Source: Tieghemostelium lacteum
Taxonomy: Eukaryota
NCBI GenBank assembly: GCA_001606155.1
Contig: LODT01000028.1
Coordinates: forward strand, 406,735 to 470,734
Direction: 5' to 3'
DNA: 64,000 bases
Position numbers and translations under genes: made by a program. Of this stretch, positions 28,068 to 45,849 are shown in pieces. Position 1 is the first letter of the stretch, and each line of letters begins with the position of its first letter. The notes beneath the pieces were generated by a model. It did no database searches and was not told where the DNA came from. It saw only the letters and a list, made by a program, of their open reading frames with translations.

Positions 28068-31000
28068 TTAAATTAATAGTTGTTTGAATTTTCCAGCTGT
28101 GATAATTAATTTAATTAGGTGGTCTTGAATGTTCAATTTACTAAGAGCAATTCTAGCTTCAGAGATTTTAAGTTTGGAAAGAAGTTCAGTAATCTGAGTT
28201 CTTGGTTGTTTTATATTGCTAAGGAAGACAAAGACTAGGAGAACTAATAGATGAGATAAGTTGGTACCTTGGGTTGCAGCAGGATTAAGACCGATCAATT
28301 GAGCTTCAGTAATACCAATGTTATTGTACAATGTAGCTTTATAGATGACTGGGAAAACACCATTTGCTAATATACTCTTAAGAGCAGTAGCTACAATTAA
28401 CTGTTGTTTTAGGTGTTCTGGATCTATTTGTTGTTGATCAGATGCTTTAAGAGCTGGTACCACTGGGGCCTTCATTGAACCTGATGCTCCAAATAATGCC
28501 TGTTTGAATGATAAACCCTCCGATGATGAGATAGAGGAAGATAAGGAAGATTTGGAGGAGGATGGAGTTGGAGCTTGTTGGACCTTGTTGAGAGACCATG
28601 ATCGCATTTTGGGTTCTTCCTCCTCCGGTTCCCATTTTTTTGACTTTGCAGCTTTGGAGTGTTTTTTATTCTTTTTTTTGGAGGTTTTGAGTTCTTCTTC
28701 ATCACTTATGTCATCACCCCAATTGTTTTTGAATATATCAAATGGTTGATCTTTTTCTACACTTTTTTTCTTTTGATCTTTTTCTATACTTTTTTGAACT
28801 GGTTCTTCAAAACTATCAAATAGAGAGAATCCCATGTCTTCATCGGAAGATTCTATCATTCTTTTTTCTGATTGTCTCATGGATAATGGCTGAGCTGGTT
28901 TGCTTGTTGATACAGTTGTTGGTGTTGGTGTTGGTGTAGTAATTGGTTCCAATGGATAATAACCAAATAAATCACCATCAGCGAATCCCATGTCAGATTC
29001 GTCTTCTTCTGGCATAGATTTTGCATAATGAGCACTTGTTGATTCTTTAGAATTGGTTCTTGAAACTGGCATACTGTAACCTCCACCATCGTCTCCAAAT
29101 AAGGAGAATCCCATATCATATTCTTCATCTTCTTCCTCTTCTAAATATTTTTCTTTCACCTCCTCTTGTTTAGCTAAAGGTTTTACAGAAGCAGCAGCAG
29201 AATAGACAGTACCTGATATTTTCGAATCAGATCTACCTCCGAAACCACCTTCACTATCCCAGTCTTCATCGTCGTCATCATCATCATTTTCTTCATTACT
29301 GTCATATTCTTTTCTGACAATAGATAGTCTTCTTGTTGACAATCTTGAAGAAAGAGTATCCATAAGAGCTGTTTTGAAAGACTTGTCATTTTCATTTTTA
29401 ACTTCTTTTGGAACAGATTTCAATGTCTGACCAGATTTAATAGACGATAATAGAGATTCAGTTGAAGACTCTTTTTTATCTTCAATAACTTTAGTTGGAA
29501 ATAAACTACCATGTTTCTTTCCACCACTTGGGACACCGCCAGTTGTAGGAGGTGTAATAGAGGATGATCTAGGTGATGGTGTGGTTGAAGAAGATGGTGG
29601 TGGAGGTGGTGGATATGATTGTCCTCCTCCGCCTCCCATGAAATACATAGCACCAGGAGCCATAGGTGGTGGTGTTGGTGATGAGTCCCAACCTATATGA
29701 GCTGCATTTTGGAATGAAGTTGGTGCACCAATTACTAAATCTTTATCATTTAATTTATCTTTCATAAATAGATCTCTCTTTCCCTTTTCTTGTTTAACTG
29801 GTGCCATTTGTTTTGGTGGAGGTGGACCTGAACTTACAGATGGTCTTGGAGGTGGAGTTGATGGTAATGGAGTGAGTGATTGTTGTGGTAGACCTCCAAA
29901 GGATGGCTTTGAATTACCAACTGAATAGAAAACTTGTTGAAAAGATGGTGTCTGTGGTGGACTTTGTACAGATTGTTGCTGTGGTAGACCTCCAAATAAT
30001 GACGTTGAAGGAACTGGGGCTCCAAATGCACTTGTTGATCCAAATTTTCCAGTAGCAGTAGAAGTTGAAGCTGATTGTACGACTGAGAAGCTTTGTTTCT
30101 GTAATTGGTGTTGTTGTATTTTTTGTGGTTGTGGTTGTTGCTGATATTGTACAATTGGAGTAGTTGGTGTATTATAAGGAAGTTGTTGCACAGTTATTGG
30201 TGATGGAGATGGAGGTGGAAGTGAGTTTGTAGATAATTTCTTTTTAAATGAAACCATTCCACCTTTGGATTTACTAAGCTTTTCTTTGTCAACAGATCTT
30301 TCTAAGACACTAAATGAAATATCACTTTTGATATCATTATTGTTATTATTATTGTTATTGTTATTGTTATTGTTATTGTTATTGTTATTGTTATTGTTTG
30401 AAAAATTATTTTTTAAATTGTTGAATGCTTCTCTTAAATTATTACTAAGTGATCTTTTTTTTTCTCCACTTTCTCTTGATCTGGAACCTCTACTTTCGCT
30501 CTCTTTGGGACTTTCATATATCTTTTTATCAATAACCTCAAGCTCACCAGATCCTAAAATGTCATCAACACTATTTTGAGGTGAATATCTAGAAGCACCA
30601 TTGCTCATAGTGGAACCTATTGTACCACCTCTACCTCTAGATCTACCATTGCTGCCACCTCTACCTCCATCTTTACCTCTTAGACTTACATTATCTCTAA
30701 TAGCATTTCTTGAATTTAATGCACCTGATAAATAAGAATCAAGCTCAAGGTCTAAAGAGTCAAAATGTTGATGTGCTTCTAATGATGGTTTTTCATCAGA
30801 TATGGGAATGTTTAATTCAATTGCACATAGTGATTCACTTTGTTCTTCAACTAGGTTTGCTAAATCTTGGAAAATGTCTTTAATTCCAGACATATCTGAT
30901 TGAAGTTGGAGGAGAGATTCATTTCTTTCATGGAGAATTTCATTATAATCCAACTCTTCTTTAGAAAGTTTGTAGGGTCCATATTCTTTTTCTACATTTC

Positions 31001-34000
31001 CAGTTGGATGAGGTCTATTAAGTTCCTTTACAGTTGGTGTGACCGTTTCAACTTTAAAAGTTACGGATGGTTTCATTGGAGATTTAATCCATTTATCTAG
31101 ATTGTTCTTTAACTGTTCTTGTTCATGTTCCTCATTTGAATCTCTGATAGAGGAACGTTCTTGTTCAGATTTCTTTCTTTCCAAACTCAACTCCAAGAGC
31201 TCTTGTTCATTTACAATAGTTGTAAGATCATCTCTAATCTCTTGCATAATCAATGTACTATCTGTATAAGAGTCCTCAGAAAGACTATCCAGTTCTGAGA
31301 TGGCATTGTCAAATGCCTCTTTAAGAATATGAGTTGATTTCTCAACTTGACCTGTTCTCTTATAGAATTGTCCTGCAAATTTACTAGCCCTTAATCTGTG
31401 TGGATGTGTTGATGGTAATGAAGAGAGTTTAGATAAGAGATTGTCAAGTTTTCCCGAGATCTTCTCATCCAATGATTTCTTGGCAATATCATTTTCTTCA
31501 AATTGACTTTGAGTGTCATAGAGTTGACACTCATCTTGAATTAAAGCAATTAGATTCTCATCAACTGCTTGGTTCTTTGGAACGGATTGTTCTATCAATC
31601 TCAATAGACTCTTAACCTGATAGATTAAATCAGTCTTTATCTTCAACTGACCTCTTTGAGCTTGTTTTAATTTTACAGGTGTCAATTTAGTTGGAGTTGA
31701 TACTTTAGTTGGTGTCTTTTTAGGTGTTGAAGTTGAGGGTTGTTGTTGTAAAAATACAGTTGGATCAAATTTAACTAATTCAATCTTGTCAAGAACCAAG
31801 TGTTTAATAGTTTCATTGATCATTTTAATCTCCTCTGTAGTATATTCTCCAAATTGTTCAGTAATTTGGTGGAAAATATTGATTGAATCTTGGTATTGTC
31901 CATTGGCATGCATGGATTTAGCCACATGAACTACTTGGTCTCTCTGGGAGAGTAAAGTGGAATCATTTGGATCTTGATCAGAGCCCTCAGCTTTTTCTTG
32001 CCATTGAATGTATGGTAATGTATCAATAACAGTTTGACTGACAATCTCTTGAATGGATGGTATATCTTTACGTTGAATTTCATTCTTTTCACGTTTTTCA
32101 ACAGCTACAAAACTGGTGAATTGTGTTACAATGGAATATTTAATACTGAGATTGATGATATCTTGTTTCTTTCCAAGTTTAATAAGGTCATTATCAAATT
32201 TTGAATTTGAATAGGTACCATCATTGTATTCTCTAATCATAGATCTTGCTGCTAATCTATGTATAAGACTACCACGAATGAAACCAATTTCAGGAGTGTG
32301 AACTGAATTTGTGATTAATCCACCACCTGGAGCTTGTGCAACGAGAGTAGCTCTAGTAGCAATTCCAGAGAATGCATATATCACTTGTCTTTCTTTCTTG
32401 AAGATTGAAGTAATGATATTAGGTGACTGAATAATCTTATCTGTAGAATCAAATTTAACTGAAATATTTGACATGGATGGTTGTAATGTTCTCTGAAGTT
32501 GATTGATAATCTTTTTTGGATTAGGTCTTTTGTTTGGTACAACAAACTCTGAATAACCACCACCTAGACGAGAGATGGATTTGATGAAATGTCTAGAAAC
32601 ATTTTCACCAATACCAAATGTAAATAATTTACAATAAGGTGATGCCTTTTTAACAAGTTCTTGCACTAAAGTTTCATTGGCAACGTTACCATCACTGTAT
32701 AGAATGATATTGTGTGGATTATTAGGTTTGGCATTCTCAGCTAACAAGAATAGTGATTGTAATGGTTGATGTAGTTGTGTGCCACCATAATGAGGTTTCA
32801 AACGATTGATATGATTCCAAGCCAATTGTAGATTGATTTCAGTTGGAGGTACATCTTCAACGAATAACCAATCAAATTGGTCACCAAACTGGACAATGTT
32901 AAAGAGTACTTTGAAACCACGAAGATTGGAAACAGTGAGTCTAAGAGCTCTTAACATATCCTCAAATGCATCACCAGCCATAGATGCTGAGAGATCAACA
33001 AGTAATGTCAAATGTGTTAGAGAATCCTTGTCATTGTCGATATCTAATTTTGGATAGAATGCCAACATGGATGCATGGTGACCTTGATCATCAACTTCCA
33101 CCCACATTCTAGGTGAATATGGTTCCTCAAGACCAATAAGTAACTGGAAGTTCTTACCAAGACTACTGTCTCCACTTGTGAGTTCAACAGTAGCTTTAGT
33201 GTTAGTCTTCTTTACACGAATTGGATGAGTTGGAGATGTTAATTTAACTATATTATAAGGCATTTCAACACCAACTTGTAGAGTCAAATCAAGGTTTTTG
33301 TCATCACCAATATGGGTAGTAGAAGTTGTGTTTTGAGTTACAGTACTACCACTTTTAGCACGTTGTTGAGGACTGATAGATGATGGTAAAATAAATGAAA
33401 TATCCAAACCATCCATTGACAGCTCTGTTATATAAGTTATCTTTATCAATACATCAGCTTGTGGTGGAAGATTACCAACTGAAACTGAGAAAACATCTGG
33501 TTTATCTTCATCCATTAAATAAGCACCATCACCTCTTTCAACAGCTTCCCTATACTCTCTATGTGCTTTCTCTTTCTCTTTACATTCACCAACTACATGT
33601 TTACCATTGATGAATGCTTCGAAACCACAAACTGCAGCCATTTCATCTAAAGGAAATACATATTTTGCCTCAATTTGAGAACTTGATGAATTCTTGTAAT
33701 GTTGATAGATAACAACCTCACCAATTAAATCCAGAACTTTAGCACGTACATGAACATCTTTTAATGGAATATCAACTTTTCCACCAGATGCAATAAGACC
33801 TACTTCCTTAGGTTCCTCTTCCATATCCTCAGGTTTAGAAGATGGTTGGATCTGGTCACTTACCTTGTCTTGTGGTAATGTTAGTTTTGGAGCACTTTGT
33901 GCACTAACTGCCATAGCTTGAGGTACTGCCAAAGGAGTTGATGTAGTTCTTGCATCAGGCATCTCAAATTCAACTAGATACAAGAGTTTTTGTTGTTTAG

Positions 34001-35935
34001 GATCATAGATTACAATTTCATCATCCTGGAAAGCACTTTGTACAGCAGATGTTGATGCAACACCTTGTACACTTTGGTAGCCTTTTGGAGGGCTGTCTAA
34101 TTGGTATTGATGTTGAGTGTATTTCTTTGTGTTACCCAAGGCAGCTTGGCATACAAACATGTATTTTCTTTGTGAGAAATCGGATCTCTTACAGTACTGG
34201 GTTGAAGTTGAACTCTTTAGACCAAAGTATATACCACTACCAAGGTAACCAATATCTCTTCTGCCTGTGGATAGAGATGTTGATACATTAGGTGTAAGCA
34301 AACCTCTTGACAAAATACCCAAGACATTACTAGGGTTACTACCATGATAGAGTGTCTTAATGTTAGGAATGGAGAACTGAAGATTCAACTCTTCGTTTCT
34401 CTGTGTTGAGTATATCTCCTTGATTACAATATCAGGATTCTGTTGTTTAATCTGGTCATAGAGTTTCTTGTGATCCTTGGAGTTATCAGAAAGACATTGA
34501 ATATTACAACGTAATGCACGATAACGTGTATCCACTATAGAGGTTGAAGAAACACCCAAAGACTCACCAACATTCAGTATATCCTTAATCAATTGAATGC
34601 AATCTTGAATATCCTGAAGTTCAGATACAATCTGAGGAAGATTTCCAGAGGCTGTCAACTGAGCAATCTTGCATTGCTTAAGTTGAGGTAAAGCCTGATA
34701 GACTTCATTGAATAGTTGTACAGTTGTTGGTGATGACAAAAGTGGTTTACCATTATCGGTTTTCATCAGAGTTGCCAATTGGAAGAGTGACAATTCAGCC
34801 TTCTCCACTTGAACCAATGTTATATCACCAAGGTCAGATTTGATTGCACCTTCAGGTGACAATGTCAATTTAGCCTTACACATCAGTTTAGTACCTAGAG
34901 TTGACATGGCTTCCTGATAAATACGTTCAATAAACTTTTGAATAGGTTCGGGAAGTGATGATTTCCCAGAAGAAGACTGTAAATTTGAACTTTGTTGCAG
35001 TCGATCTGAACCTACTCTAGCTGAAGAAACTTGAATTTTAGTGTATTGTCTATTGGAGGTGTACTCTAAAAATATTTGATTATAAAGTTTGAGAGCATCT
35101 TCAATGGTAGATGATGAAACCCATTCTTTAGTTTGATCAACACTACCAGTTGTACCATAGTGCATAAATACTCTATAGAAACTTGGTAATCCTGAATCTG
35201 AAGATCCACTATCACCTCCAAGTGATATAAGTGACAATGCTTTACCAGCTACGTGCAACTCCAAACACATAAACTCTTGTGTATCCAATCTATGAAGGAT
35301 ATTGTATTTAATAATGTGGTATTTATCTTCTGGAAATTGTGATCCAAGATCACTGGACTGCACAGCATTAGGTTGATATTTAACTTTCTTTAACTGTTCT
35401 AATGAAAAACCACTACTACTCTTGTTGTCACCATTTTCAAGAATATCAGAGAAATTCAATGACTTGTAATGAAACTCTTTAATATTATATTGAGATACTA
35501 ATGAATACTCACTAGTTGACAATAAAGTTCCAAATGAAATGGAATCATCAAGATATCTCTTTGAAAGTATTGGTATATTTAATTTTATAGCTTTTTTGAT
35601 ATTAAATGATAATGAATCCACATTTATATCTTTTTTATCTGAATCTGTTTCAGATACTTCTACTTGTTGTTGTTGTTGTTCATCTGCTTTAACTAAATCA
35701 TCAAAATCACCATTATAAATAAAGTAATTAACCTATTGTAAATTAAAGTATTAGTAAAGTAAATAAAATGGTCATTTTCAATGGTGTGTTGGTTCTTAAG
35801 TTAACTTACTTTATGATTTAAAACTGCAGAAACTGTTCCTTTATATTTTAAAACAAGATCTTGTAAAGCTTTTTTAGCTTTGTAACCTTGATTGGTACAA
35901 TCTAAAAAAAAGGTTTGATGTTCAAATATTGACAT
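28068..35935 (-). CDS. Giant (~2,596 aa) vault-PARP/PARP4-like poly(ADP-ribose) polymerase (BRCT-WGR-PARP-VIT-vWA) fused to a long C-terminal extension carrying a WASP-like CRIB/Pro/WH2/C/A module
   Basis: Exon 1 is 35810..35935 (MSIFEHQTFFLDCTNQGYKAKKALQDLVLKYKGTVSAVLNHK, BRCT start). The intron is 35733..35809 (GTAAGT..CAATAG). Exon 2 is 28068..35732, one uninterrupted ORF. The WGR domain is at about 35030-35330. The PARP catalytic domain is at about 33960-34370, with the H-Y-E triad in LYHGSNPSNVLGILSRGLL, GSGIYFG and DDEIVIYD. The VIT domain is at about 33400-33790 and the vWA domain (LLVDLSASMAGD) at about 32480-33020. The C-terminal motifs are listed under findings. Confidence 0.85.
30336..30398. 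repeat. (GTTATT)n microsatellite encoding a ~24-residue poly-Asn run in the PARP gene
   Basis: Perfect hexamer repeats on the plus strand, translated on the minus strand as NNNNN... within SNNNNNNNNNNN..DIKSD. Confidence 0.9.
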
Positions 35936-36294
35936 TTTTATATTCACTACTGATCAAGTAATAGAGAATAACAATAAGATATTTACAAATACTATTACTA
36001 ATTATCTGATCAGAAAAAAAATCTAATCAGTAAATTTGAAAAGTTTGAAAATTTATTAAAAACAGGATATTTTTTATAGAATTTTGTTGGAAAGCTCATT
36101 TATCTCAACATATTAAAAGATTTTTCATTTCTTTATTGTAATTCTCAAAATGAAATGTAATAAAATATGATAATATTATAATATATTTTAATATGTGTGG
36201 TTCTAGTTCTAACAATGTTAGACTATTTTCACCAATAAAACCAAAATTCAAAAAATCTAAAGTATCTAAAGAATCTTCTACTCTGAAATAACTC

Positions 36295-37885
36295 CTACAT
36301 ATCGTAAATGGATGAGTTTATTATGACATTATATTTGGAGAATACATCTAATAAATCAAGTTTAATTTGAGTTAAACGGTGTTCATTAGATAAATTAAAA
36401 CAATTCATTTGTTGAATTGTTGTATTGATTCTAAAGAGTTCAATAAATTCTTTTACTATATCAGTTGTGAATTCAAAGGTATCTGCCCATGGAGGTGGAA
36501 GAATAAATGTATGAAGAGTTTTGTTGATTGTTAGAATTTTAATATATAGTTCACAATGATTATAATTGATATTACGGCTGTACGAAAAATCCTCTATAAC
36601 TAACGCTGTTAGTGTGGTGTTGTGAGATAGTGATTTTATAAACAATGTTAAATCATTTTCAATACTATTTTCATTGTGATGGAGATAGTATACTATATCT
36701 TTGAATATTTGGATGTGGAATTGACAGAAGTTGATTTAGAACACCAAAATCCAATTCATAAAAATCAACAGTATGAAGATTTTTATGTACTGATATATCA
36801 TTAATCCTCATTGAGCTTGATAAATCATGTAATGTGAGATACCGTAGATTTTTAAATTCTTTAACTTTAACCGTATTTTCATTGGGTGCGAAAATGGATT
36901 TTATATTATCTTTGTGTTTCCATAACTCTAATATTCTGTCATTATTTGTTGTGAAAAGTTCTAGAGAATGTATCAATTGGTTTGTTATGTTATCTGATAA
37001 TGTTTCATTGTTCCATTTTAAAGAAACTAAAATTAGAGTACCAGTTTTGATATTGGATAGAAAATCAACAACTATTTGATGTGAGGTGGTAATATTTGAC
37101 ACCACTCTCAAACGTTGCAGATTCATTGATTGTGAAGAGTGATTTAATATTTCCAAAACTTTATCGTATTGGTTTTTATCTTCATTTAAGACTATATTCT
37201 CTATCTCTAGATTTTGGCAATTCAAAGAGTTTTCCAAGAGAGACTTTAACATCCATTGTGACATTGTAATTCTATCTAAACTTATTTTAGTTAGAGAATT
37301 GGGTTGAAAAGAATTATCATTTTCTCCAATAAAGGTAAAAAAACCAAACCCTAAGCTGATGACTCTTCTATTTTGAATTAACTCTCCAATTCTATTAAAT
37401 TCAATTTTGGATTGCCCTACACTCCAGGTCCAACTCCAACTTTTAATGTGGATGTCAACGTTTGATAATGATTTTAGTTTGTTGAATAGAAATTCTTCTG
37501 AATCTGAAAATGAGGTTTCAACAACTATAGATTCTAAATTCTTGAAATGAGATATTGATTGATCTAAAGTTTTATTTTGTTCATCTTTGATTTCAATCTG
37601 ACTAACTTGATCGCTAATGATTTCATTTAAATGTTTAACTGCATCAGTTGAATATCTAGGTAAAATGAATCTATAATTATACCATTTATATTTATTTGCA
37701 AGTGCTATGAAATCAGGTAATAATTTAATTGTTTTTGATAAATCATTCACATGTCTATATCGTAATTTTACAATTATTGATTGGTCCATTCTTTACTGAT
37801 CAATGTATATTTTCGTAAAAACATATAAACGTATTCAATATCTATTGAATGATTTAGAATTGGATCTAAAATATTAATTACAGAT
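36295..37885 (-). pseudogene. Decayed copy (A) of the F-box-like/LRR-like gene at 40395..41984
   Basis: Colinear with copy B but split into two ORFs (36671..37789 and 36295..36645). There is a 1-nt deletion at 37785 (TTGGTCC versus TTGGTTCC in B), which frameshifts the N-terminus. The start-codon region is replaced at 37880/37881. Confidence 0.7.
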
Positions 37886-39667
37886 ATTGATATACCAAAG
37901 GAACATTGGGACAATGAATCAGTTCAAAAATGGTGTAAATTCCAATGAATTTACCTGAAAAGGATTTATTAATTATTAATGACTTAGATGGATTTTGTTT
38001 AGTATATTTTTATCAATGTGGAAATTTAATAAAACAATTAAGGGATTTTGGTGTATCCCTCCCTTCTTCACATAGAATTCTTACAAAATTCAATCCACCA
38101 CAAACACAATGTAAACTAAACATCTATCATAATCTAACGCTTTTTGTTCATTTTAACTTATATTTTTTATATAAAATTCAACACAATTAAAAACCTGTTG
38201 ACATTCAACTACACTATAGGGCAGCAGGGTATGTAGATTGCTTGAATAATGTAAAGTATTTAGGTGTTGAAACTAGATATTAACTTAGTAATAATTAGCT
38301 GATAAAAGTTGGACATTTGTAAACCCAGTAAATCAAGGAAATTATTACCACATTGATCCAAAAAATTTACAATTATAAAAAAGCAATCCAAGGTGGGAGT
38401 TGGTTAGTTCAGGGGTCATATAGAAGTGGCAAAACAACCCATATGATAGCACTTGAAAAACAAATCCAAAAACAATTTTTTCCATTCATTTTCACTTTGA
38501 ACCCTTATATTGACATTTGGAAAAATATATCAGGTACAATCTCAATAGATTACCCTGATTGTGGGCCTATTAAAGATGTCAAGGAATTTAGAGACAAGTT
38601 TCTAGCCAATAAGAAGTATTTTGGAGGGAAGAATGTAGTTTTATTATTTGATGAGTTCCAATGTTTACTTGATACCGAAGAGTACTTTGTATTCTGCTCA
38701 GAAATGAAAAATATAATGGATAACAGAGCCACTTATAACATACAAGCCATTTTTGGTTTCGGGACATTTCAAACTACTAAATTGGCAAAAATAGATAGCA
38801 AAAGCACTTTTAGTCCATTTCATATGCCAGAAACAACTATTATAGAACCACTTCCAGAGAAATTGGTATATATACTACTCAATGAATGGGCAAGTACTAT
38901 AGGAATGGTAATACCACCTTCAATTCTAAAAGATATATATATAACTATTGGTGGGTATGCAGGTATTCTTGGACTGCTTGGATTAGCTCTCCAGAGTTCA
39001 ACTAGTATAACTTAAGTCTAGCCATAATAAAAATATGACAATGAACCAGTGGATGTTTATTCGTGAACAGACTTCTAGTAATTTACAAAAACAACCTCAT
39101 TCCAGAAATTAGTATTAATAATTTCAAGTGACGAGAAAATTTCAAAACTTGCAGAATATATTTTATATGGTCCAGAACCATTTTTTTTCTCACCAGAAAA
39201 TATTGAATATATGATGACGCTTTTAGATTATGGGTTGTTAAGACAAGATAGCAAAAGCAACAAATTTTATCTTTCCTCTCCATTAGTTAGAGAGTTCTTA
39301 TTAGCTAAATACTATAGAGAGGTTAACTCCATATATTATTTCAACAGAAGTTAAAACAAGTGTTATCGGAAACAGAAGAATAGATATTTTGGTTAGAAAT
39401 GGAAAAAGAATTATATTTGAATTGAAATCTGATTTGAAATGGGAGATTGCTGATTTAGCTCAACAATCTGTAATACAATTTGATAGAGATGCAGAGGATT
39501 TTCAAGTTCATACAGCCATTATATTAAATTTAGTCCCCAATGGATCAAAATTTTCTCATATAGAATTTATCCATAATCAAGTTAAATATTTTATATTCGA
39601 GGTAATTTTTGATGGAAACACATTCACACTCAACACAAAAGAAAATATTGAAGCAACTTTGAAATAA
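37881..39667 (+). pseudogene. Frameshifted gene encoding a SAM-like domain, a P-loop (Arch_ATPase/AAA-like) NTPase, a winged-helix region and a PD-(D/E)xK nuclease-like domain
   Basis: The pieces lie in different frames. The SAM-like part is HWDNESVQKWCKFQ* / MNLPEKDLLIINDLDGFCLVYFYQCGNLIKQLRDFGVSLPSSHRILTKF. SWTFVNPVNQGNYYHIDPKN follows. The NTPase part is ORF 38353..39015, with Walker A GSYRSGKTT and Walker B VVLLFDEFQ. The winged-helix part is KLAEYILYGPEPFFFSPENIEYMMTLLDYGLLRQDSKSNKFYLSSPLVREFLLAKYY. ORF 39389..39667 carries RRIDILVRNGKRIIFELKSD (D..ExK). The gaps between pieces are too short to be introns. Confidence 0.55.
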
Positions 39668-39774
39668 ACAATTTTTTTATTCCCATCATTTCCTATCTCT
39701 AATATCAATCAAAACAAATATCTCATAAATACCTGAATTACAACCTCCAATAATATTAAAATCTATTATTTACT

Positions 39775-40110
39775 TTTTGTAAATGGATGAGTTTATTATG
39801 ACATTATATTTGGAGAATACTTCCAATAAATCAAGTTTTATCGGATTCATCTGATAAATGAAAACATTTCATTTTTTGAATTGTTGTATTGATTATAAAG
39901 AGTTCAATAAATTCTTTAACCATATCAGTTGTGAATTCAAAGGTATCTGACCATGGAGGTGGAAGAATAAATGTATGAAGAGTTGTTGATTGTTAGAATT
40001 TTAATATATAGTTCACAATGAATATAATTGATATTACGGCGTAATCCTCTATAACTAATGCTGTTAGTGTGGTGTTATGAGACAGTGATGTTATAAACAA
40101 TCTTATATCA
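39775..40110 (-). pseudogene. Truncated third copy of the 3' end of the LRR-like gene family
   Basis: Strongly similar at the nucleotide level to 36295..36650 (AAATGGATGAGTTTATTATGACATTATATTTGGAGAATAC...). It has several indels and stops and no upstream continuation. Confidence 0.65.
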
Positions 40111-40394
40111 TTTTTTGTAAGACATCAATATCTAATTGTAAGACATCGATATCTAATAGAGTCTTATAGTCAAAGTATATATATATATATAGTTTTCCTA
40201 TATATAGAAGTATTCTTAGAGATCTTGAATCTCTTAATAATCTTATATAATATTATTGTTGTGTATGATATAGTTCAAGAGATAACAATAATATAGAACT
40301 ACGGTAAAGAGTAAATATCTTTATAATTTTCGTAAATATCTCTTTAGAAATGAAATGTAAAGTTATGTTGGTAATAAAGAATTTACATTTACAT

Positions 40395-41984
40395 TTAGTA
40401 AATGGATGAGTTTATTAGAACATTATATTTGGTGAATACATCCAATAAATCAATTTGAGTTAAACTGGGTTCTTTAGATAAATCAAAACAATTCATTTGT
40501 TGAATTGTTGTATTGATTCTAAAGAGTTCATTAAATTCTTTTACCATATCAGCTGTGAATTTAAAGGTATCTGACCTTGGAAGTGGTAGAATAAATGTAT
40601 GAAGAGTTTTGTTGATTGTTAGAATATCAATATATAGTTTACAATGATTATAATTGTTATTAAACATATACGAAAACCTTTTTATAGCTAACCCGGTTAG
40701 TGTGGTGTTGTAAGAGAGTGATGTTATAAATATGCCTAAATTATTTTCAATACTATTTACATAGGAACGGAGATCGTGTATATTATATCTTTGAACACTT
40801 GAATGTGGAATTGACAGAATTTGATTTAGAACACTTATATCCAATTCATAAAATTCAATAGTGTGAAGATTTTTAAGTGCAGAAAAATCATTAATCCCCA
40901 TTGAGCTTGTTAAATCTGGTAATGTGAGATACCGTAGATTTTTAAATTCTTTAACTTCATATTTACTAGCACCACTTACCCAAATGGATTTTATATTATC
41001 TTTATGTTTCCATAACTCTAATATCCTATCACCCTTAGTTGTGATGATAAGTTCTAGAGAATGAATCCATTGGTTTGATATATTATCTGGTAATGTTTCA
41101 TTGTTCCATTCTATATAAACTAAAATTAGAGTACCAGTTTTGATATTGGATAGAAAATCAACAACTACTTGATGTGAGGTGATTATATTTGCTGAGTCCA
41201 CCCTCAAACGTTGCAGATTCATTGATTGTGAAGCATGTTTTAATATTTCATAAACTTTATCGAAATTGTTTTCATCTTCATCTAAGACTATACCATGAAT
41301 TCCTAGATTTTGGCAATTCAAAGAGTTTTCCAAGAGAGACTTTAACATCCATTGTGACATTTTAATTCCATCTATAATTATTTTAGTTAGAGAATTGGGT
41401 TGAAAGGAATTTGTATTTTCACCAAAACAGGATAAAGACAAAAAATGTATGCTGATAACTCTTCTATTTTGAATTAACTCTCCAATTCTATTAAAATCTT
41501 CTAATTGTGGCACCACAAAAATTTTAATATTGATGTCAATGTTAGATAATGATTTTAGTTGGTTGATTAGATATTCTTGGGATTTTAAAAATGAAGTTTC
41601 AACAACTATAGATTCTGAATTCTTGAAATGAGATATTGTTTGATTTATATTTTTTCTTTGTTCATCATGGATTTCAATCTGACTAACTTGATCTCTAATG
41701 ATTTCATTTAAATGTTTATAATAACAATTAGGTAAAATGAATCTATAATTATACCATTTATATTTATTTGCAAGTGCTATGAAATCAGGTACTAATTTAA
41801 CTGTTCTTGGTCTTTGTAAATTATTAACATGTCTATATCGTAATTTTACAATTATTGATTGGTTCCATTCTTTACTGATCAATGTATATTTTCGTAAAAA
41901 CATATAAACGTATTCAATATCTATTGAATGATTTAGAATTGGATCTAAAATATTAATTATCAGATAATTAGGTATCATCGCCAT
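40395..41984 (-). CDS. F-box-like / leucine-rich-repeat-like protein (intact copy B)
   Basis: 529-aa uninterrupted ORF. The N-terminus is F-box-like (IPNYLIINILDPILNH..LISKEWNQ). Irregular LRR-type periodicity follows (NLRYLTLPDL, LKNLHTIEFYELD...). Confidence 0.7.
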   Translation of the reverse strand: MAMIPNYLIINILDPILNHSIDIEYVYMFLRKYTLISKEWNQSIIVKLRYRHVNNLQRPRTVKLVPDFIALANKYKWYNYRFILPNCYYKHLNEIIRDQVSQIEIHDEQRKNINQTISHFKNSESIVVETSFLKSQEYLINQLKSLSNIDINIKIFVVPQLEDFNRIGELIQNRRVISIHFLSLSCFGENTNSFQPNSLTKIIIDGIKMSQWMLKSLLENSLNCQNLGIHGIVLDEDENNFDKVYEILKHASQSMNLQRLRVDSANIITSHQVVVDFLSNIKTGTLILVYIEWNNETLPDNISNQWIHSLELIITTKGDRILELWKHKDNIKSIWVSGASKYEVKEFKNLRYLTLPDLTSSMGINDFSALKNLHTIEFYELDISVLNQILSIPHSSVQRYNIHDLRSYVNSIENNLGIFITSLSYNTTLTGLAIKRFSYMFNNNYNHCKLYIDILTINKTLHTFILPLPRSDTFKFTADMVKEFNELFRINTTIQQMNCFDLSKEPSLTQIDLLDVFTKYNVLINSSIY

Positions 41985-42222
41985 GCTTTAAAATCATAAA
42001 GTGTGTTAATATTCATTTAAATATCTTTAATCAATATTTTTGTTAATTTAAAAAATCCAGTAAATTTCGTTGAAAAAAATTCAAATCAATGATATAAGTT
42101 AGACTTGTAAAATAACACTTTATTTGAAACTTGGATTGTATTTAATTTTTTTTTTTTTATTAATTTATTTTTTTTGTAACGCTGACCAAATTAAACCGAT
42201 ATATTTAATTTCAGGGTGATAG

Positions 42223-45200
42223 ATGGAAGACTTAAAAATCACATCTGAGATTAAGGAAGAAAAAAACACAGATTCTTCTACTAATACCAAAGAAGCAACA
42301 GACAGTAAATCAGTCAGTGATACATTAATTAATCCTATCACAAATGAGCAGTCATCATCATTATCATCTACAGATAAACCTCAATCACCACCACAAAAAA
42401 CAGATGATGATATTGTAAATAATAATATTAATATAAGTATTAGTAGCAGTGGAAATGAAAGCACTGATACATTACTGAATACAGTAAAATCTAGTATAGA
42501 TCAATTACCAGATAAAGAAATTAAAGATAAATCTAATAGTAATGAGTCCAAAAATAGTAGTAGTAGTAATAATAATAATAATGGATTTGAATTATTTTCA
42601 AATGAATCCATGGCAATAACTGAAGTAACTACCTTACAGAGATCTAGGTCATCTTTGATTTCCTCTGCCAGTTGTATACCTTTAAAGACAGGAAATAACA
42701 TTTTATTAAATTCTGATGAAAATCAATTGGATTCTGTACAGAAAGTATCTATTAAGTCCACTGGACCTAATGTTGATCACAGTTTGAATATAAATAATAA
42801 TGAAAAATCACAGTCCAATGAGAAAAAAGTTAAACCTGTAAAATTACATTTATCTGATAATGCAATACCTACAATATCAAGTTCATCTTCATCGAATGTG
42901 GCCAATAGCAGTGGTGCTACTAGTGCACCTGTTGTAAAATATTTCCCATTGACTCCTTATCTATCGAAATTGGATCAAATTAAAATTGTTTCAGATACTC
43001 TGTCGAGTGCAGATCAAAAGTCACCTCAACAGTCACAAAAAGCATTGGAAAGTCTGTTAATTGAAAATAAAAGAGGAACTTCAGATATGACATCCCTAAT
43101 AAGTCAAGCTGATTCTGATAACCCTCAAACCAATACAACTTCAATTCCAACCAATGAAAACTCATCAACATTGGGATTCTCACAAGACTCCATAGACGAT
43201 GATGAGTTGTCATTTGATGATTTAAATAGTTCTTCAAATTTAACACCACCAACATCTCCAATTCCAATTCAGTTACCTCCCACACCTAACACCACTCCAA
43301 TTTCAAGTCCAATCAGATCATCCATTCTCACCAGTGAATTACTTTCATTTGCATCTGAAACACCTCAATCTAATACCCAAACCATTGAAAAACCAATCGA
43401 AAATGAACCAATAGAAACTGAAATTAAAAAAGTTGATATATCAAAAGAAGAAGGTAAAGAAGAAGTAAAACCTTCACCATCTATAGCATCATTAGTTAAA
43501 TCTGAAAAACCATCAACTCCAACTACCTCCACTGACACAACTAACACTAATACAACACAACCAACAACTCCAAAACAACCAGAATCACCAACTAAAAACA
43601 CTAATAACAATAATAATAATAATAACAACAATAATGGTAGTAAAGATGTATTTGATCAATTTAATGATCATAGATCATCACTACAATTTTGGAAAGAGAT
43701 GTTTAAGAAGAAGAAGAGATCTAATAAGATTGAACATGATAATGCAAAAATACAGAAAGCTAAAGAACTTGAAAAGAAACATAAAGATGAATTTGATAAA
43801 AAAGGTCCACAAATACAATACAAGAAACAATATAAACCTAAAGAAAAGGATGGTGCAAATAAGACTGATGATGATAATGATTATTTTAATAGAGTTATTG
43901 ATGATGGTTTTAAATTGACAACTCTACCTACTGAAGCTGAAGATGATGGTCATGTATTTATACTCTATGGAAATTTGAATAAATTAGTTGTTGATGTTAA
44001 AATGGTACCTTGTGGTAACCATGTAAGTTCATCAGTTGCACTTAATCATTGGTTGAAACATGACTGGGCACAGTTTCCACCTGATATCAGAAACAATATT
44101 CAAGTTTCAACATCACCAGTGGATTTCAAGAGAGGTAAAGATAGAGTTTATAAATTACAAAATTGGCCTACACAGTATCCGAATATAAGTCAACCTTGGT
44201 TTTGTAATGTTGTGCCCTCATTCTATCCATACCCTATTAAAGCTGAATGGTATGTCAAAGGTGCTCAAGAGTATTTAAATAAGGTTGGTGAAGATCTCCG
44301 AAAAACCAACCCACCAATTAAAAACGGTCGTGCAAAGTATCTTATATCACTTCCTATTGTTGGAACTGGTGGAGGTGGTGGTAGCTATCTAGCTGGTGAG
44401 ATCCTAACACTACTCATTAACGAACTCTATGCTGCATCTAGAAAATGGAAGTATGATGTAGTTTTAGTAACCAACGAGATTTCAATGTACACTGCTGCCA
44501 TAAACAAGAGAAATGAGCTAATTAGTAAAAACAAAACATTTAGCTACAATTACAGGACTTTACTAGGACCTTTAATGGGAAAAGCAGAGTATCTCTCCAA
44601 GTTGATAGATAAGGATAAACTGGCGTCTTTTGTAGGAAGTGGAATGTCAATATGTGCAGGGTTGCCTAACTGGCAGTACCTATTACAAATGTTGGGTGAG
44701 AAGTTGGGAATGTCAAAAGAAGAGATTAGGTCAATGGAACAATTACATTATCTAGATAGAGCAACGGTTTTGGAAGGTCGTTGGAAGAAGGCTTTGGCGA
44801 AATACCATCCACCGGATTTAAGTTCATTCAAGTCGCTGTATAATAGTAATAATCCAGATGAACAGTCTCAGGAGGAGGAATCGAATATTCAAATTAATAA
44901 GTTTCATCAGATGCATAAGGATATTTATAAGGAGGTTAATGTACCTATGCAAACAGAGATTGCAAATCTTATGAAGGTCTCACATGCAGGTTTAACTCAC
45001 TTCCTACTTACAAGTACAAATATTCAAGAGTTTATCACAACAAACTATGATGAGTGTTTGGAGATTGCCAGTAAGTCTATTGATAGACCTGTTTGTGTTT
45101 TACCTTATGAAAACCCTACATTGTCTAATAAGAGATGGGTATTGAAGCTTCATGGCTGTGTTAAACATCCTCAAGATATTGTCATTACACGTGAAGATTA

Positions 45201-45849
45201 CATTCGTTATGGTGATAAGAAAGAAGCACTTTCTGGAATTGTACAAGCATCTCTTTTGACTAAACACCTTTTATTTGTAGGCTTTAGTCTGGTAGATGAC
45301 AACTTTTATCAAGTAATGTCAGCTGTCAAGAAAGTAACCAACAACACTCAGAAAAAGAAATATGGTACCGTTTTATTCATTCAAAAGAATGACTTAATGT
45401 GTGAACTCTGGGGTGAACATCTAGACATTATCTGCTTTGATACCAGTACCAATGGAAAGTCACAAAGTATTGCAGAGTGTGCTAGAAAACAAGAAATATT
45501 CCTAGAGTATTTGGCATCACTATGTTGTGTCAATAATCATACTAGTCATCTAATGGAAAAAAGATTTGATTGTCTTCTATCGGAAGGTGAGAAAATATTT
45601 AGAGATAAAATTATATCATTTGTAGATGATCTACCTCAAGAAGCAAAAGAAACTCAAGCATTTCATAAATTCCAAGAGTTTCTCGACCAAATTGGTTACA
45701 ATTATGGTGGTTATCAATATCTTCATCAAATACAAAATATTCAAAAATCTTTTCAAAAACCAAAATGGAAGACTTTTGGTGAACCTTCCAATAATAATAA
45801 TAATAATAGTAATAATAATAATAGTAAATCGAACAGTAAAAAGCAATAA
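42223..45849 (+). CDS. Large protein with a low-complexity N-terminal half, a macro-like domain and a SIR2_2 (ThsA/FAM118-type) NAD-binding/NADase-like domain
   Basis: 1,208-aa ORF. The macro-like segment is at about 43950-44480 (HVFILYGNLNKLVVDVKMVPCGNH ... ISLPIVGTGGGGGSYLAGEILTLLINELY ... YDVVLVTNE). The SIR2_2 motifs are at about 44620-45500: FVGSGMSICAGLPNWQYLL, FITTNYDECLE, LKLHGCVKHPQDIVITREDYIRY and LLFVGFSLVDDNF. Confidence 0.8.
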   Translation: MEDLKITSEIKEEKNTDSSTNTKEATDSKSVSDTLINPITNEQSSSLSSTDKPQSPPQKTDDDIVNNNINISISSSGNESTDTLLNTVKSSIDQLPDKEIKDKSNSNESKNSSSSNNNNNGFELFSNESMAITEVTTLQRSRSSLISSASCIPLKTGNNILLNSDENQLDSVQKVSIKSTGPNVDHSLNINNNEKSQSNEKKVKPVKLHLSDNAIPTISSSSSSNVANSSGATSAPVVKYFPLTPYLSKLDQIKIVSDTLSSADQKSPQQSQKALESLLIENKRGTSDMTSLISQADSDNPQTNTTSIPTNENSSTLGFSQDSIDDDELSFDDLNSSSNLTPPTSPIPIQLPPTPNTTPISSPIRSSILTSELLSFASETPQSNTQTIEKPIENEPIETEIKKVDISKEEGKEEVKPSPSIASLVKSEKPSTPTTSTDTTNTNTTQPTTPKQPESPTKNTNNNNNNNNNNNGSKDVFDQFNDHRSSLQFWKEMFKKKKRSNKIEHDNAKIQKAKELEKKHKDEFDKKGPQIQYKKQYKPKEKDGANKTDDDNDYFNRVIDDGFKLTTLPTEAEDDGHVFILYGNLNKLVVDVKMVPCGNHVSSSVALNHWLKHDWAQFPPDIRNNIQVSTSPVDFKRGKDRVYKLQNWPTQYPNISQPWFCNVVPSFYPYPIKAEWYVKGAQEYLNKVGEDLRKTNPPIKNGRAKYLISLPIVGTGGGGGSYLAGEILTLLINELYAASRKWKYDVVLVTNEISMYTAAINKRNELISKNKTFSYNYRTLLGPLMGKAEYLSKLIDKDKLASFVGSGMSICAGLPNWQYLLQMLGEKLGMSKEEIRSMEQLHYLDRATVLEGRWKKALAKYHPPDLSSFKSLYNSNNPDEQSQEEESNIQINKFHQMHKDIYKEVNVPMQTEIANLMKVSHAGLTHFLLTSTNIQEFITTNYDECLEIASKSIDRPVCVLPYENPTLSNKRWVLKLHGCVKHPQDIVITREDYIRYGDKKEALSGIVQASLLTKHLLFVGFSLVDDNFYQVMSAVKKVTNNTQKKKYGTVLFIQKNDLMCELWGEHLDIICFDTSTNGKSQSIAECARKQEIFLEYLASLCCVNNHTSHLMEKRFDCLLSEGEKIFRDKIISFVDDLPQEAKETQAFHKFQEFLDQIGYNYGGYQYLHQIQNIQKSFQKPKWKTFGEPSNNNNNNSNNNNSKSNSKKQ

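Follow-up and report, generated by a model that had tools for sequence, protein, structure and literature searches.

A putative gene-conversion tract at the junction of two fused pseudogenes in a small cluster of F-box/leucine-rich-repeat-like genes of Tieghemostelium lacteum

The locus described here occupies positions 36285 to 41984 of a 64,000-nucleotide (nt) stretch of contig LODT01000028.1 of Tieghemostelium lacteum (assembly GCA_001606155.1, positions 406,735 to 470,734 of the forward strand). The whole stretch analysed is called the window, and all coordinates refer to it. The locus holds three members of a family of F-box/leucine-rich-repeat (LRR)-like proteins, all on the minus strand and named here, in order of position, A, C and B. 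Between A and C, on the plus strand, lies N, the relic of an unrelated gene. Copy B is intact, while A, C and N are dead. The locus is a real feature, in which pseudogenes A and N are fused at their 5' ends and A carries, next to the junction, a short tract best read as the product of gene conversion.

Copy B (40395-41984, minus strand) is, with 100% identity, DLAC_05564 of Tieghemostelium (Dictyostelium) lacteum, a single-exon gene that encodes 529 amino acids and lies on a 1.86-Mb contig. Copy A (36285-37880, minus strand), delimited by alignment and tblastn, is a pseudogene of the same T. lacteum-specific family. The original prediction held that A and B are colinear, and this was borne out over the whole coding sequence (CDS): at a spacing of 4.08 kb, A 36285-37880 aligns with B 40379-41959 with 1385 of 1541 positions identical (89.9% in the local alignment, 87.1% in a global MAFFT alignment). 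The blocks of identity found when A was aligned with the region of B and C were as long as those first described, or longer. The start codon of A was lost, as had been proposed, at a sharp breakpoint (37880/37881); the whole stretch of 25 nt with which the CDS should begin is gone, and so is any upstream region. These 25 nt turn up nowhere else in the window. A contains two frame-breaking deletions, and all its remaining length differences from B are multiples of 3. One is the single-T deletion already noticed (37785-37786, codon 41 of B), where B has TT and A has T on the plus strand. The other, of 2 nt (36689-36690, codon 402 of B), produces the stop at 36671 and is the lesion behind the observed split of A into two open reading frames (ORFs). 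The middle ORF of A, identified by its alignment to B (36671-37789, minus strand, 372 amino acids), is the GenBank gene DLAC_05562. Its ATG was born of the 1-nt deletion (GAATGGAAC -> GAATGGAC), and its last 127 codons were severed by the 2-nt deletion; DLAC_05562 is thus a fragment of pseudogene A. No in-frame stops beyond those caused by the two frameshifts occur in A, in 1.6 kb of DNA with 26% GC. The C-terminus YDM* is common to A and DLAC_00201, a paralog on another contig, and no poly(A) was found 3' of the stops of A, B or C.

The 95-nt block originally reported as identical (37786-37880 = 41865-41959) is exact, and past the 1-nt deletion the identity continues without a mismatch to 37749. 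The resulting tract of 132 nt (37749-37880, minus strand) contains zero substitutions and equals B 41827-41959 except for the one missing base; its end coincides exactly with the A/N junction. When the mismatch positions were shuffled 20,000 times, a run of at least 95 nt had a probability of 3e-4, and a run of at least 132 nt appeared in none of the shuffles. Silent sites behave in the same way, with an A/B mismatch at 1 of 45 third positions versus 13.2% elsewhere; at that rate, identity at the 43 third positions inside the tract has a probability of ~0.002 (0.868^43). Only two residues vary within the 55 N-terminal amino acids of the family, I22 and R49, and both are common to A and B alone (P=0.025, given a background share of 0.16). 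At the protein level, the two variable sites of the tract pair A with B, while the remaining sequence pairs A with DLAC_00201 and DLAC_00202. For the 132-nt tract the best reading is that A and B underwent a short gene conversion, as the original prediction had suggested, and the silent-site identity together with I22 and R49 supports this reading, short of proof. The 1-nt deletion is younger than the tract, because it sits inside otherwise perfect identity. Since this deletion postdates the tract, and since A has only two frameshifts and no other in-frame stop, the inactivation of A is recent.

Outside the tract, the relationships of A point elsewhere. Once frame-corrected, A shares 81% amino acid identity with DLAC_00201 and 78% with DLAC_00202, both encoded on another contig, and 76% with B. 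At the informative sites A agrees with DLAC_00201 against B in 58 cases and with B against DLAC_00201 in 27. Over codons 86-529 the synonymous divergence between A and B (dS) is 0.152 and the nonsynonymous divergence (dN) 0.159, a dN/dS of ~1.05. The homology among A, B and C ends ~10-16 nt past the stop codon (3' ends at 36285, 40379 and 39760, respectively), and sensitive blastn found none in the flanks beyond the CDS. From sequence comparison, A and B are old paralogs. That they might be recent duplicates was considered and rejected, as the two copies are not each other's closest relatives and lack homology in their non-coding flanks. A separate observation is how closely the homology is confined to the CDS for copies with a dS of no more than 0.15, which suggests concerted evolution limited to the CDS or a duplication unit of CDS size.

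The 3'-only third fragment that had been noticed was confirmed, with bounds at 39760-40114 (minus strand). This fragment C, defined by repeats and alignment, retains ~114 codons from the 3' end of a family gene, with deletions of 7, 2 and 11 nt, and its conceptual translation is 85% identical to A. Nucleotide identity is 91.3% between A and C, 87.5% between A and B, and 84.3% between C and B; A and C agree against B at 32 sites, A and B against C at 18, and C and B against A at 8. Some residues common to A and C are found in no other paralog. The comparison thus makes C, not B, the local sister of A. Private changes number 18 in C and 8 in A (P=0.08), consistent with an earlier death of C. A tandem repeat of two 21-nt units (TTGTAAGACATCAATATCTAA, 40115-40157) adjoins the 5' breakpoint of C and may be a repair footprint. 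Neither tblastn nor the family hidden Markov model run on all ORFs found further copies in the window. The 'LRR-like array' of the original prediction therefore comprises A, C and B and nothing more. One intact and one inactivated LRR-like copy had also been claimed; B is indeed intact and A decayed, and C has decayed likewise.

Relic N (37880-39667, plus strand) is a pseudogene of the family of DLAC_07413, its 618-amino-acid parent protein encoded on another contig, with 74% amino acid identity over 78% of the reconstructed query. In tblastn it starts at residue 15 of DLAC_07413, exactly at 37880. It contains in-frame stops and five frame-breaking lesions, among them a deletion of residues 447-505 (59 residues). 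An intron of 188 nt with GT..AG borders can be read at 38111-38298 (plus strand), its phase preserved. N is thus a DNA-level copy; a retrocopy origin was rejected because the intron is retained. A transposon origin was discarded as well, since the proteome holds only one close paralog; no terminal repeats were seen. N is single-copy in the window. Its last 58 codons (39491-39664, plus strand) encode a protein 100% identical to DLAC_07413, compared with ~74-85% identity elsewhere, and may represent a second conversion tract. As to function, N resembles a P-loop NTPase (nucleoside triphosphatase) joined to a PD-(D/E)xK nuclease-like domain, a weak assignment read from a possible NTPase core at 38413-38658 (Walker A GSYRSGKTT at 38413-38439 and Walker B-like VVLLFDEF at 38635-38658, plus strand) and a PD-(D/E)xK-like motif (D-ILV...FELK) at 39383-39427 (plus strand). 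The relative P0008 matches AAA_22 at E=2.4e-5 (25.1 bits, cut-off 27) and, weakly, PDDEXK_3 at E=0.011. DLAC_07413 itself has no Pfam match, a PDB sequence search with it returned only noise, and its AlphaFold model, built on a 3-sequence alignment, is unusable, with a predicted local distance difference test (pLDDT) value of 42. PADLOC gave nothing meaningful for N and, for DLAC_07413, a match to LeoB at E=4e-4 over 70 amino acids.

The original prediction had a SAM-like gene begin at the breakpoint, on the strand opposite to A. A gene does start there, but it is a 5'-truncated pseudogene and its SAM character was not confirmed: the resemblance to the SAM consensus is one seen by eye only, the model has low confidence in that part, and the SAM profile search on the isolated 84-amino-acid module of DLAC_07413 or of DLAC_07649 yielded no Pfam match at E<=10. 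DLAC_07413 (P0007) and DLAC_07649 (P0009) share only an N-terminal module of ~95 amino acids, with 59% identity over the matching stretch. The module is joined to different P-loop NTPase bodies, that of P0009 with a weak nSTAND3 match, which looks like module shuffling among STAND-like proteins.

At 37880/37881 the two pseudogenes meet head to head without intergenic DNA. The first codon left in A is codon 9, and the first residue left in N is residue 15, so that both genes are 5'-truncated. A possible 6-nt microhomology, CAGATA, lies at the junction, but with an offset of 1 nt relative to B it is not convincing. The intact copy B faces its neighbour, a gene with a SIR2_2 domain, head to head across an intergenic region of 238 bp (41985-42222), which may serve as a model for the region lost between A and N. 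Given the arrangement of B and the SIR2_2 gene, the simplest history has A and N once arranged in the same divergent way, until one deletion took out the promoter between them together with the starts of both genes. On the simplest reading of the sequence, N would be a second, unrelated pseudogene and not an insertion into an LRR-like copy.

The locus is probably a small cluster in which the T. lacteum-specific F-box/LRR-like family is turning over by birth and death: B is the working gene, A and C are dead sisters, and N is a dead unrelated gene. A and N would once have stood head to head, as B and its SIR2 neighbour do today. A single deletion of ~300 bp would then have taken the shared promoter and both 5' ends, fusing codon 9 of A to residue 15 of N. 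A short interlocus conversion, or repair of a break templated on the paralog 4 kb away, could have made 132 nt of A identical to B. The tract would stop at the junction because homology stops there, or because one repair event produced both tract and junction. Both frame-breaking deletions, the 1-nt one within the tract and the 2-nt one at codon 402, would have followed, making the death of A recent, whereas C would have lost its 5' 1.25 kb earlier and decayed further than A.

Several points weigh against this history. An ectopically pasted fragment of N would look identical to a junction made by a single deletion. N has five frame-breaking lesions and A two, a difference that is not significant (P=0.45) but would fit an earlier death of N than of A, and such an order would speak against a single event for both. 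The N-terminal 56 amino acids are nearly invariant across the five intact paralogs, so that the tract holds few synonymous sites, ~26, at which 3.5 differences are expected, and the synonymous-site test alone gives P ~0.03. The conversion test rests on one nucleotide pair, A and B, together with the incongruence at the protein level. Finally, in an assembly of 454 reads, single-base indels need confirmation at the level of the reads.

The first of these points leads to an alternative for the junction, in which ectopic double-strand-break repair placed a partial copy of DLAC_07413, perhaps with C, within the 5' end of A, N never having been complete at this place. The absence of the first 14 codons of N, its higher number of lesions, and the short, partial nature of C, whose breakpoint with its 21-nt tandem repeat suggests untidy repair, would all agree with such an event. 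However, the promoter of A and its first 25 nt, which such an insertion would have displaced, are found neither on the far side of N nor anywhere in the window, N retains its intron and its full 3' end, and the N-C spacing of ~100 bp is a normal convergent distance. Pasting of this kind is therefore unlikely, and the single deletion remains the preferred origin of the junction.

Somewhat less probable still is that no conversion took place and that the identity of the tract reflects very strong selection, across the whole family, acting on the F-box-like domain at the N-terminus or on some nucleic-acid element within it. The near-invariance of the first 56 residues in all five intact paralogs and the small number of differences expected at the synonymous sites are in keeping with selection. 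Yet the third positions are identical too, and no paralog other than A and B has the two variable residues, in conflict with the phylogeny of the remaining gene. Moreover, A is there a pseudogene, out of frame with its ORF, so that selection on the protein cannot act now. Conversion between A and B accounts better for these features.

It is improbable that A is alive, with DLAC_05562 expressed as a 372-amino-acid LRR protein devoid of an F-box. True, 372 codons are open in DNA with 26% GC and have been called as a gene. But its ATG is a by-product of the frameshift, the final 127 codons are cut off by the 2-nt deletion, and upstream there is only the antisense relic of N, without intergenic DNA. 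The supplements of PMC4931340 and PMC8535579 contain no expression record for DLAC_05562, nor any mention of expression of DLAC_05564.

The original prediction itself, a recent segmental duplication of a unit already carrying the NTPase gene, followed by decay of one copy, has been largely refuted. It drew on the colinearity of A and B across the whole CDS, on the identical tract and on the order A-N-C-B, which resembles a repeated unit. Against it, A is nearer to DLAC_00201 and DLAC_00202 than to B, dS has reached 0.15 with 76% amino acid identity, C groups with A and not with B, no homology exists outside the CDS, and N occurs once.

Least credible of all is an artefact, i.e. that junctions or frameshifts are 454/Newbler errors within a repeated family: 454 chemistry is prone to homopolymer indels, but both indels lie in runs of at most 2 bases, and even if A and B had been swapped at the tract, the junction between tract and N would persist. 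Reads of the 454 type are probably longer than 132 nt; the tract being probably shorter than the reads and its flanks ~12% divergent, a collapse in assembly is unlikely. While the genome does come from 454 FLX reads, at 29x coverage, its contigs were finished with fosmid maps and primer walking (PMC4931340).

The family to which A, B and C belong is a species-specific expansion of T. lacteum with roughly 25 or more divergent members. B has six close family members, all from T. lacteum, in a set of 5.8 billion clustered proteins. A family profile run against 1.84 billion representatives retrieved 29 proteins, and the 18 full-length ones looked up were all from T. lacteum. Many of the distant relatives share one T. 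lacteum contig (1,098,390 bp; DLAC_04354 to DLAC_04507), suggesting a large cluster there. Pfam found no significant domain in the B family, the only signal being a sub-threshold LRR_At5g56370 in A and distant relatives; a PDB sequence search with the family profile returned only noise, and PADLOC gave nothing meaningful for B. The AlphaFold model of B (pLDDT 60) starts with three helices, followed by ~17 strand/helix repeats, and Foldseek against the PDB at E<=1e-3 gave 41 matches, all 41 to LRR proteins, including TIR1, SKP2, COI1 and D3, with sequence identities of 9-15% and template modelling (TM) scores of 0.25-0.5. An LRR solenoid is accordingly predicted for the family with moderate model confidence, and the label 'LRR-like' of the original prediction gains support at the level of the modelled fold. 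'F-box domain-containing' is the UniRef label of P0001, P0002, P0017 and P0021, and was not confirmed in this analysis: the isolated N-terminus had no Pfam F-box match even at E<=10, and over the first 80 residues of the model pLDDT stays below 50, with the three helices at 36-41.

Columns that vary within the family are enriched in predicted strands and loops (57%) relative to helices (34%; Fisher P=1.7e-5). Together with a dN/dS of ~1.05, this enrichment may indicate diversifying selection on the LRR surface. Taken jointly, dN/dS near 1, strand and loop variation, and homology limited to the CDS suggest that the family undergoes diversifying selection, concerted evolution or both.

With F-box adaptors of the FBXL type, such as SKP2, TIR1, COI1 and D3, the family would share its layout, a helical module at the N-terminus and then an alpha/beta LRR solenoid of ~17 repeats, as far as the model goes; at the identities and TM-scores found this is a similarity of fold, not membership. 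The human pair CYP21A2/CYP21A1P is an example of interlocus gene conversion that involves a gene and the pseudogene next to it. The A/B pair resembles that case in having a short tract of perfect identity in diverged, linked paralogs of which one is inactive, and differs in that its tract abuts a probable deletion junction and is known from one nucleotide pair. Birth-and-death evolution has been described for lineage-specific F-box families of plants and Caenorhabditis (PMC3030570, PMC8665587). The T. lacteum family is similar in its large species-specific expansion, clustered paralogs, numerous pseudogenes and fragments, fast-evolving substrate-binding repeats and conserved N-terminal module. 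Unlike them, it belongs to a dictyostelid, has no significant Pfam F-box or LRR match, and has no relatives outside one species. It also fits the class of dictyostelid lineage-specific expansions, of which 53 families were counted in T. lacteum (PMC8535579); neither the family nor the locus is named in the text or supplementary files searched of that study.

The practical gain concerns annotation: DLAC_05562 deserves the label of pseudogene fragment, and two more pseudogenes beside it, the DLAC_07413-like relic and fragment C, are unannotated. The locus also documents, for the dictyostelids, in which families of this kind have received little study, a one-species family with a predicted LRR fold, its turnover through duplication, truncation and short conversion, and amino acid divergence as fast as silent divergence. 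All of this is ordinary birth-and-death of a gene family, and the current understanding of gene-family evolution is unchanged by it.

The gene that B faces (42223-45849, plus strand) encodes a protein of 1208 amino acids with a SIR2_2 domain (Pfam, 7e-30) that matches models of bacterial Thoeris ThsA (PADLOC, 4.7e-34). A broader view of the locus would make it a snapshot of ongoing concerted evolution limited to the CDS, with pseudogenes as conversion partners, forming with the ThsA-like SIR2 gene and the dead NTPase/nuclease an arms-race or immune-type cluster; we regard this as a long shot.

The window is nuclear DNA of the social amoeba T. lacteum, as follows from the identity of B with DLAC_05564, from the ordinary eukaryotic genes among the flanking ORFs (ATP11, polynucleotide kinase-phosphatase, MAP65, DBR1, an XPD-type helicase and a Dicty_CTDC repeat protein) and from its GC content of 23-36%. 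No tRNA genes were found in the window. Six colinear repeat families were found, part of the evidence for the colinearity of A and B. At lower coordinates than A, at 28068-35621 on the minus strand, a single ORF of 2517 amino acids joins a PARP catalytic domain, VIT, VWA and a 14-3-3-like region, and resembles a vault-PARP protein.

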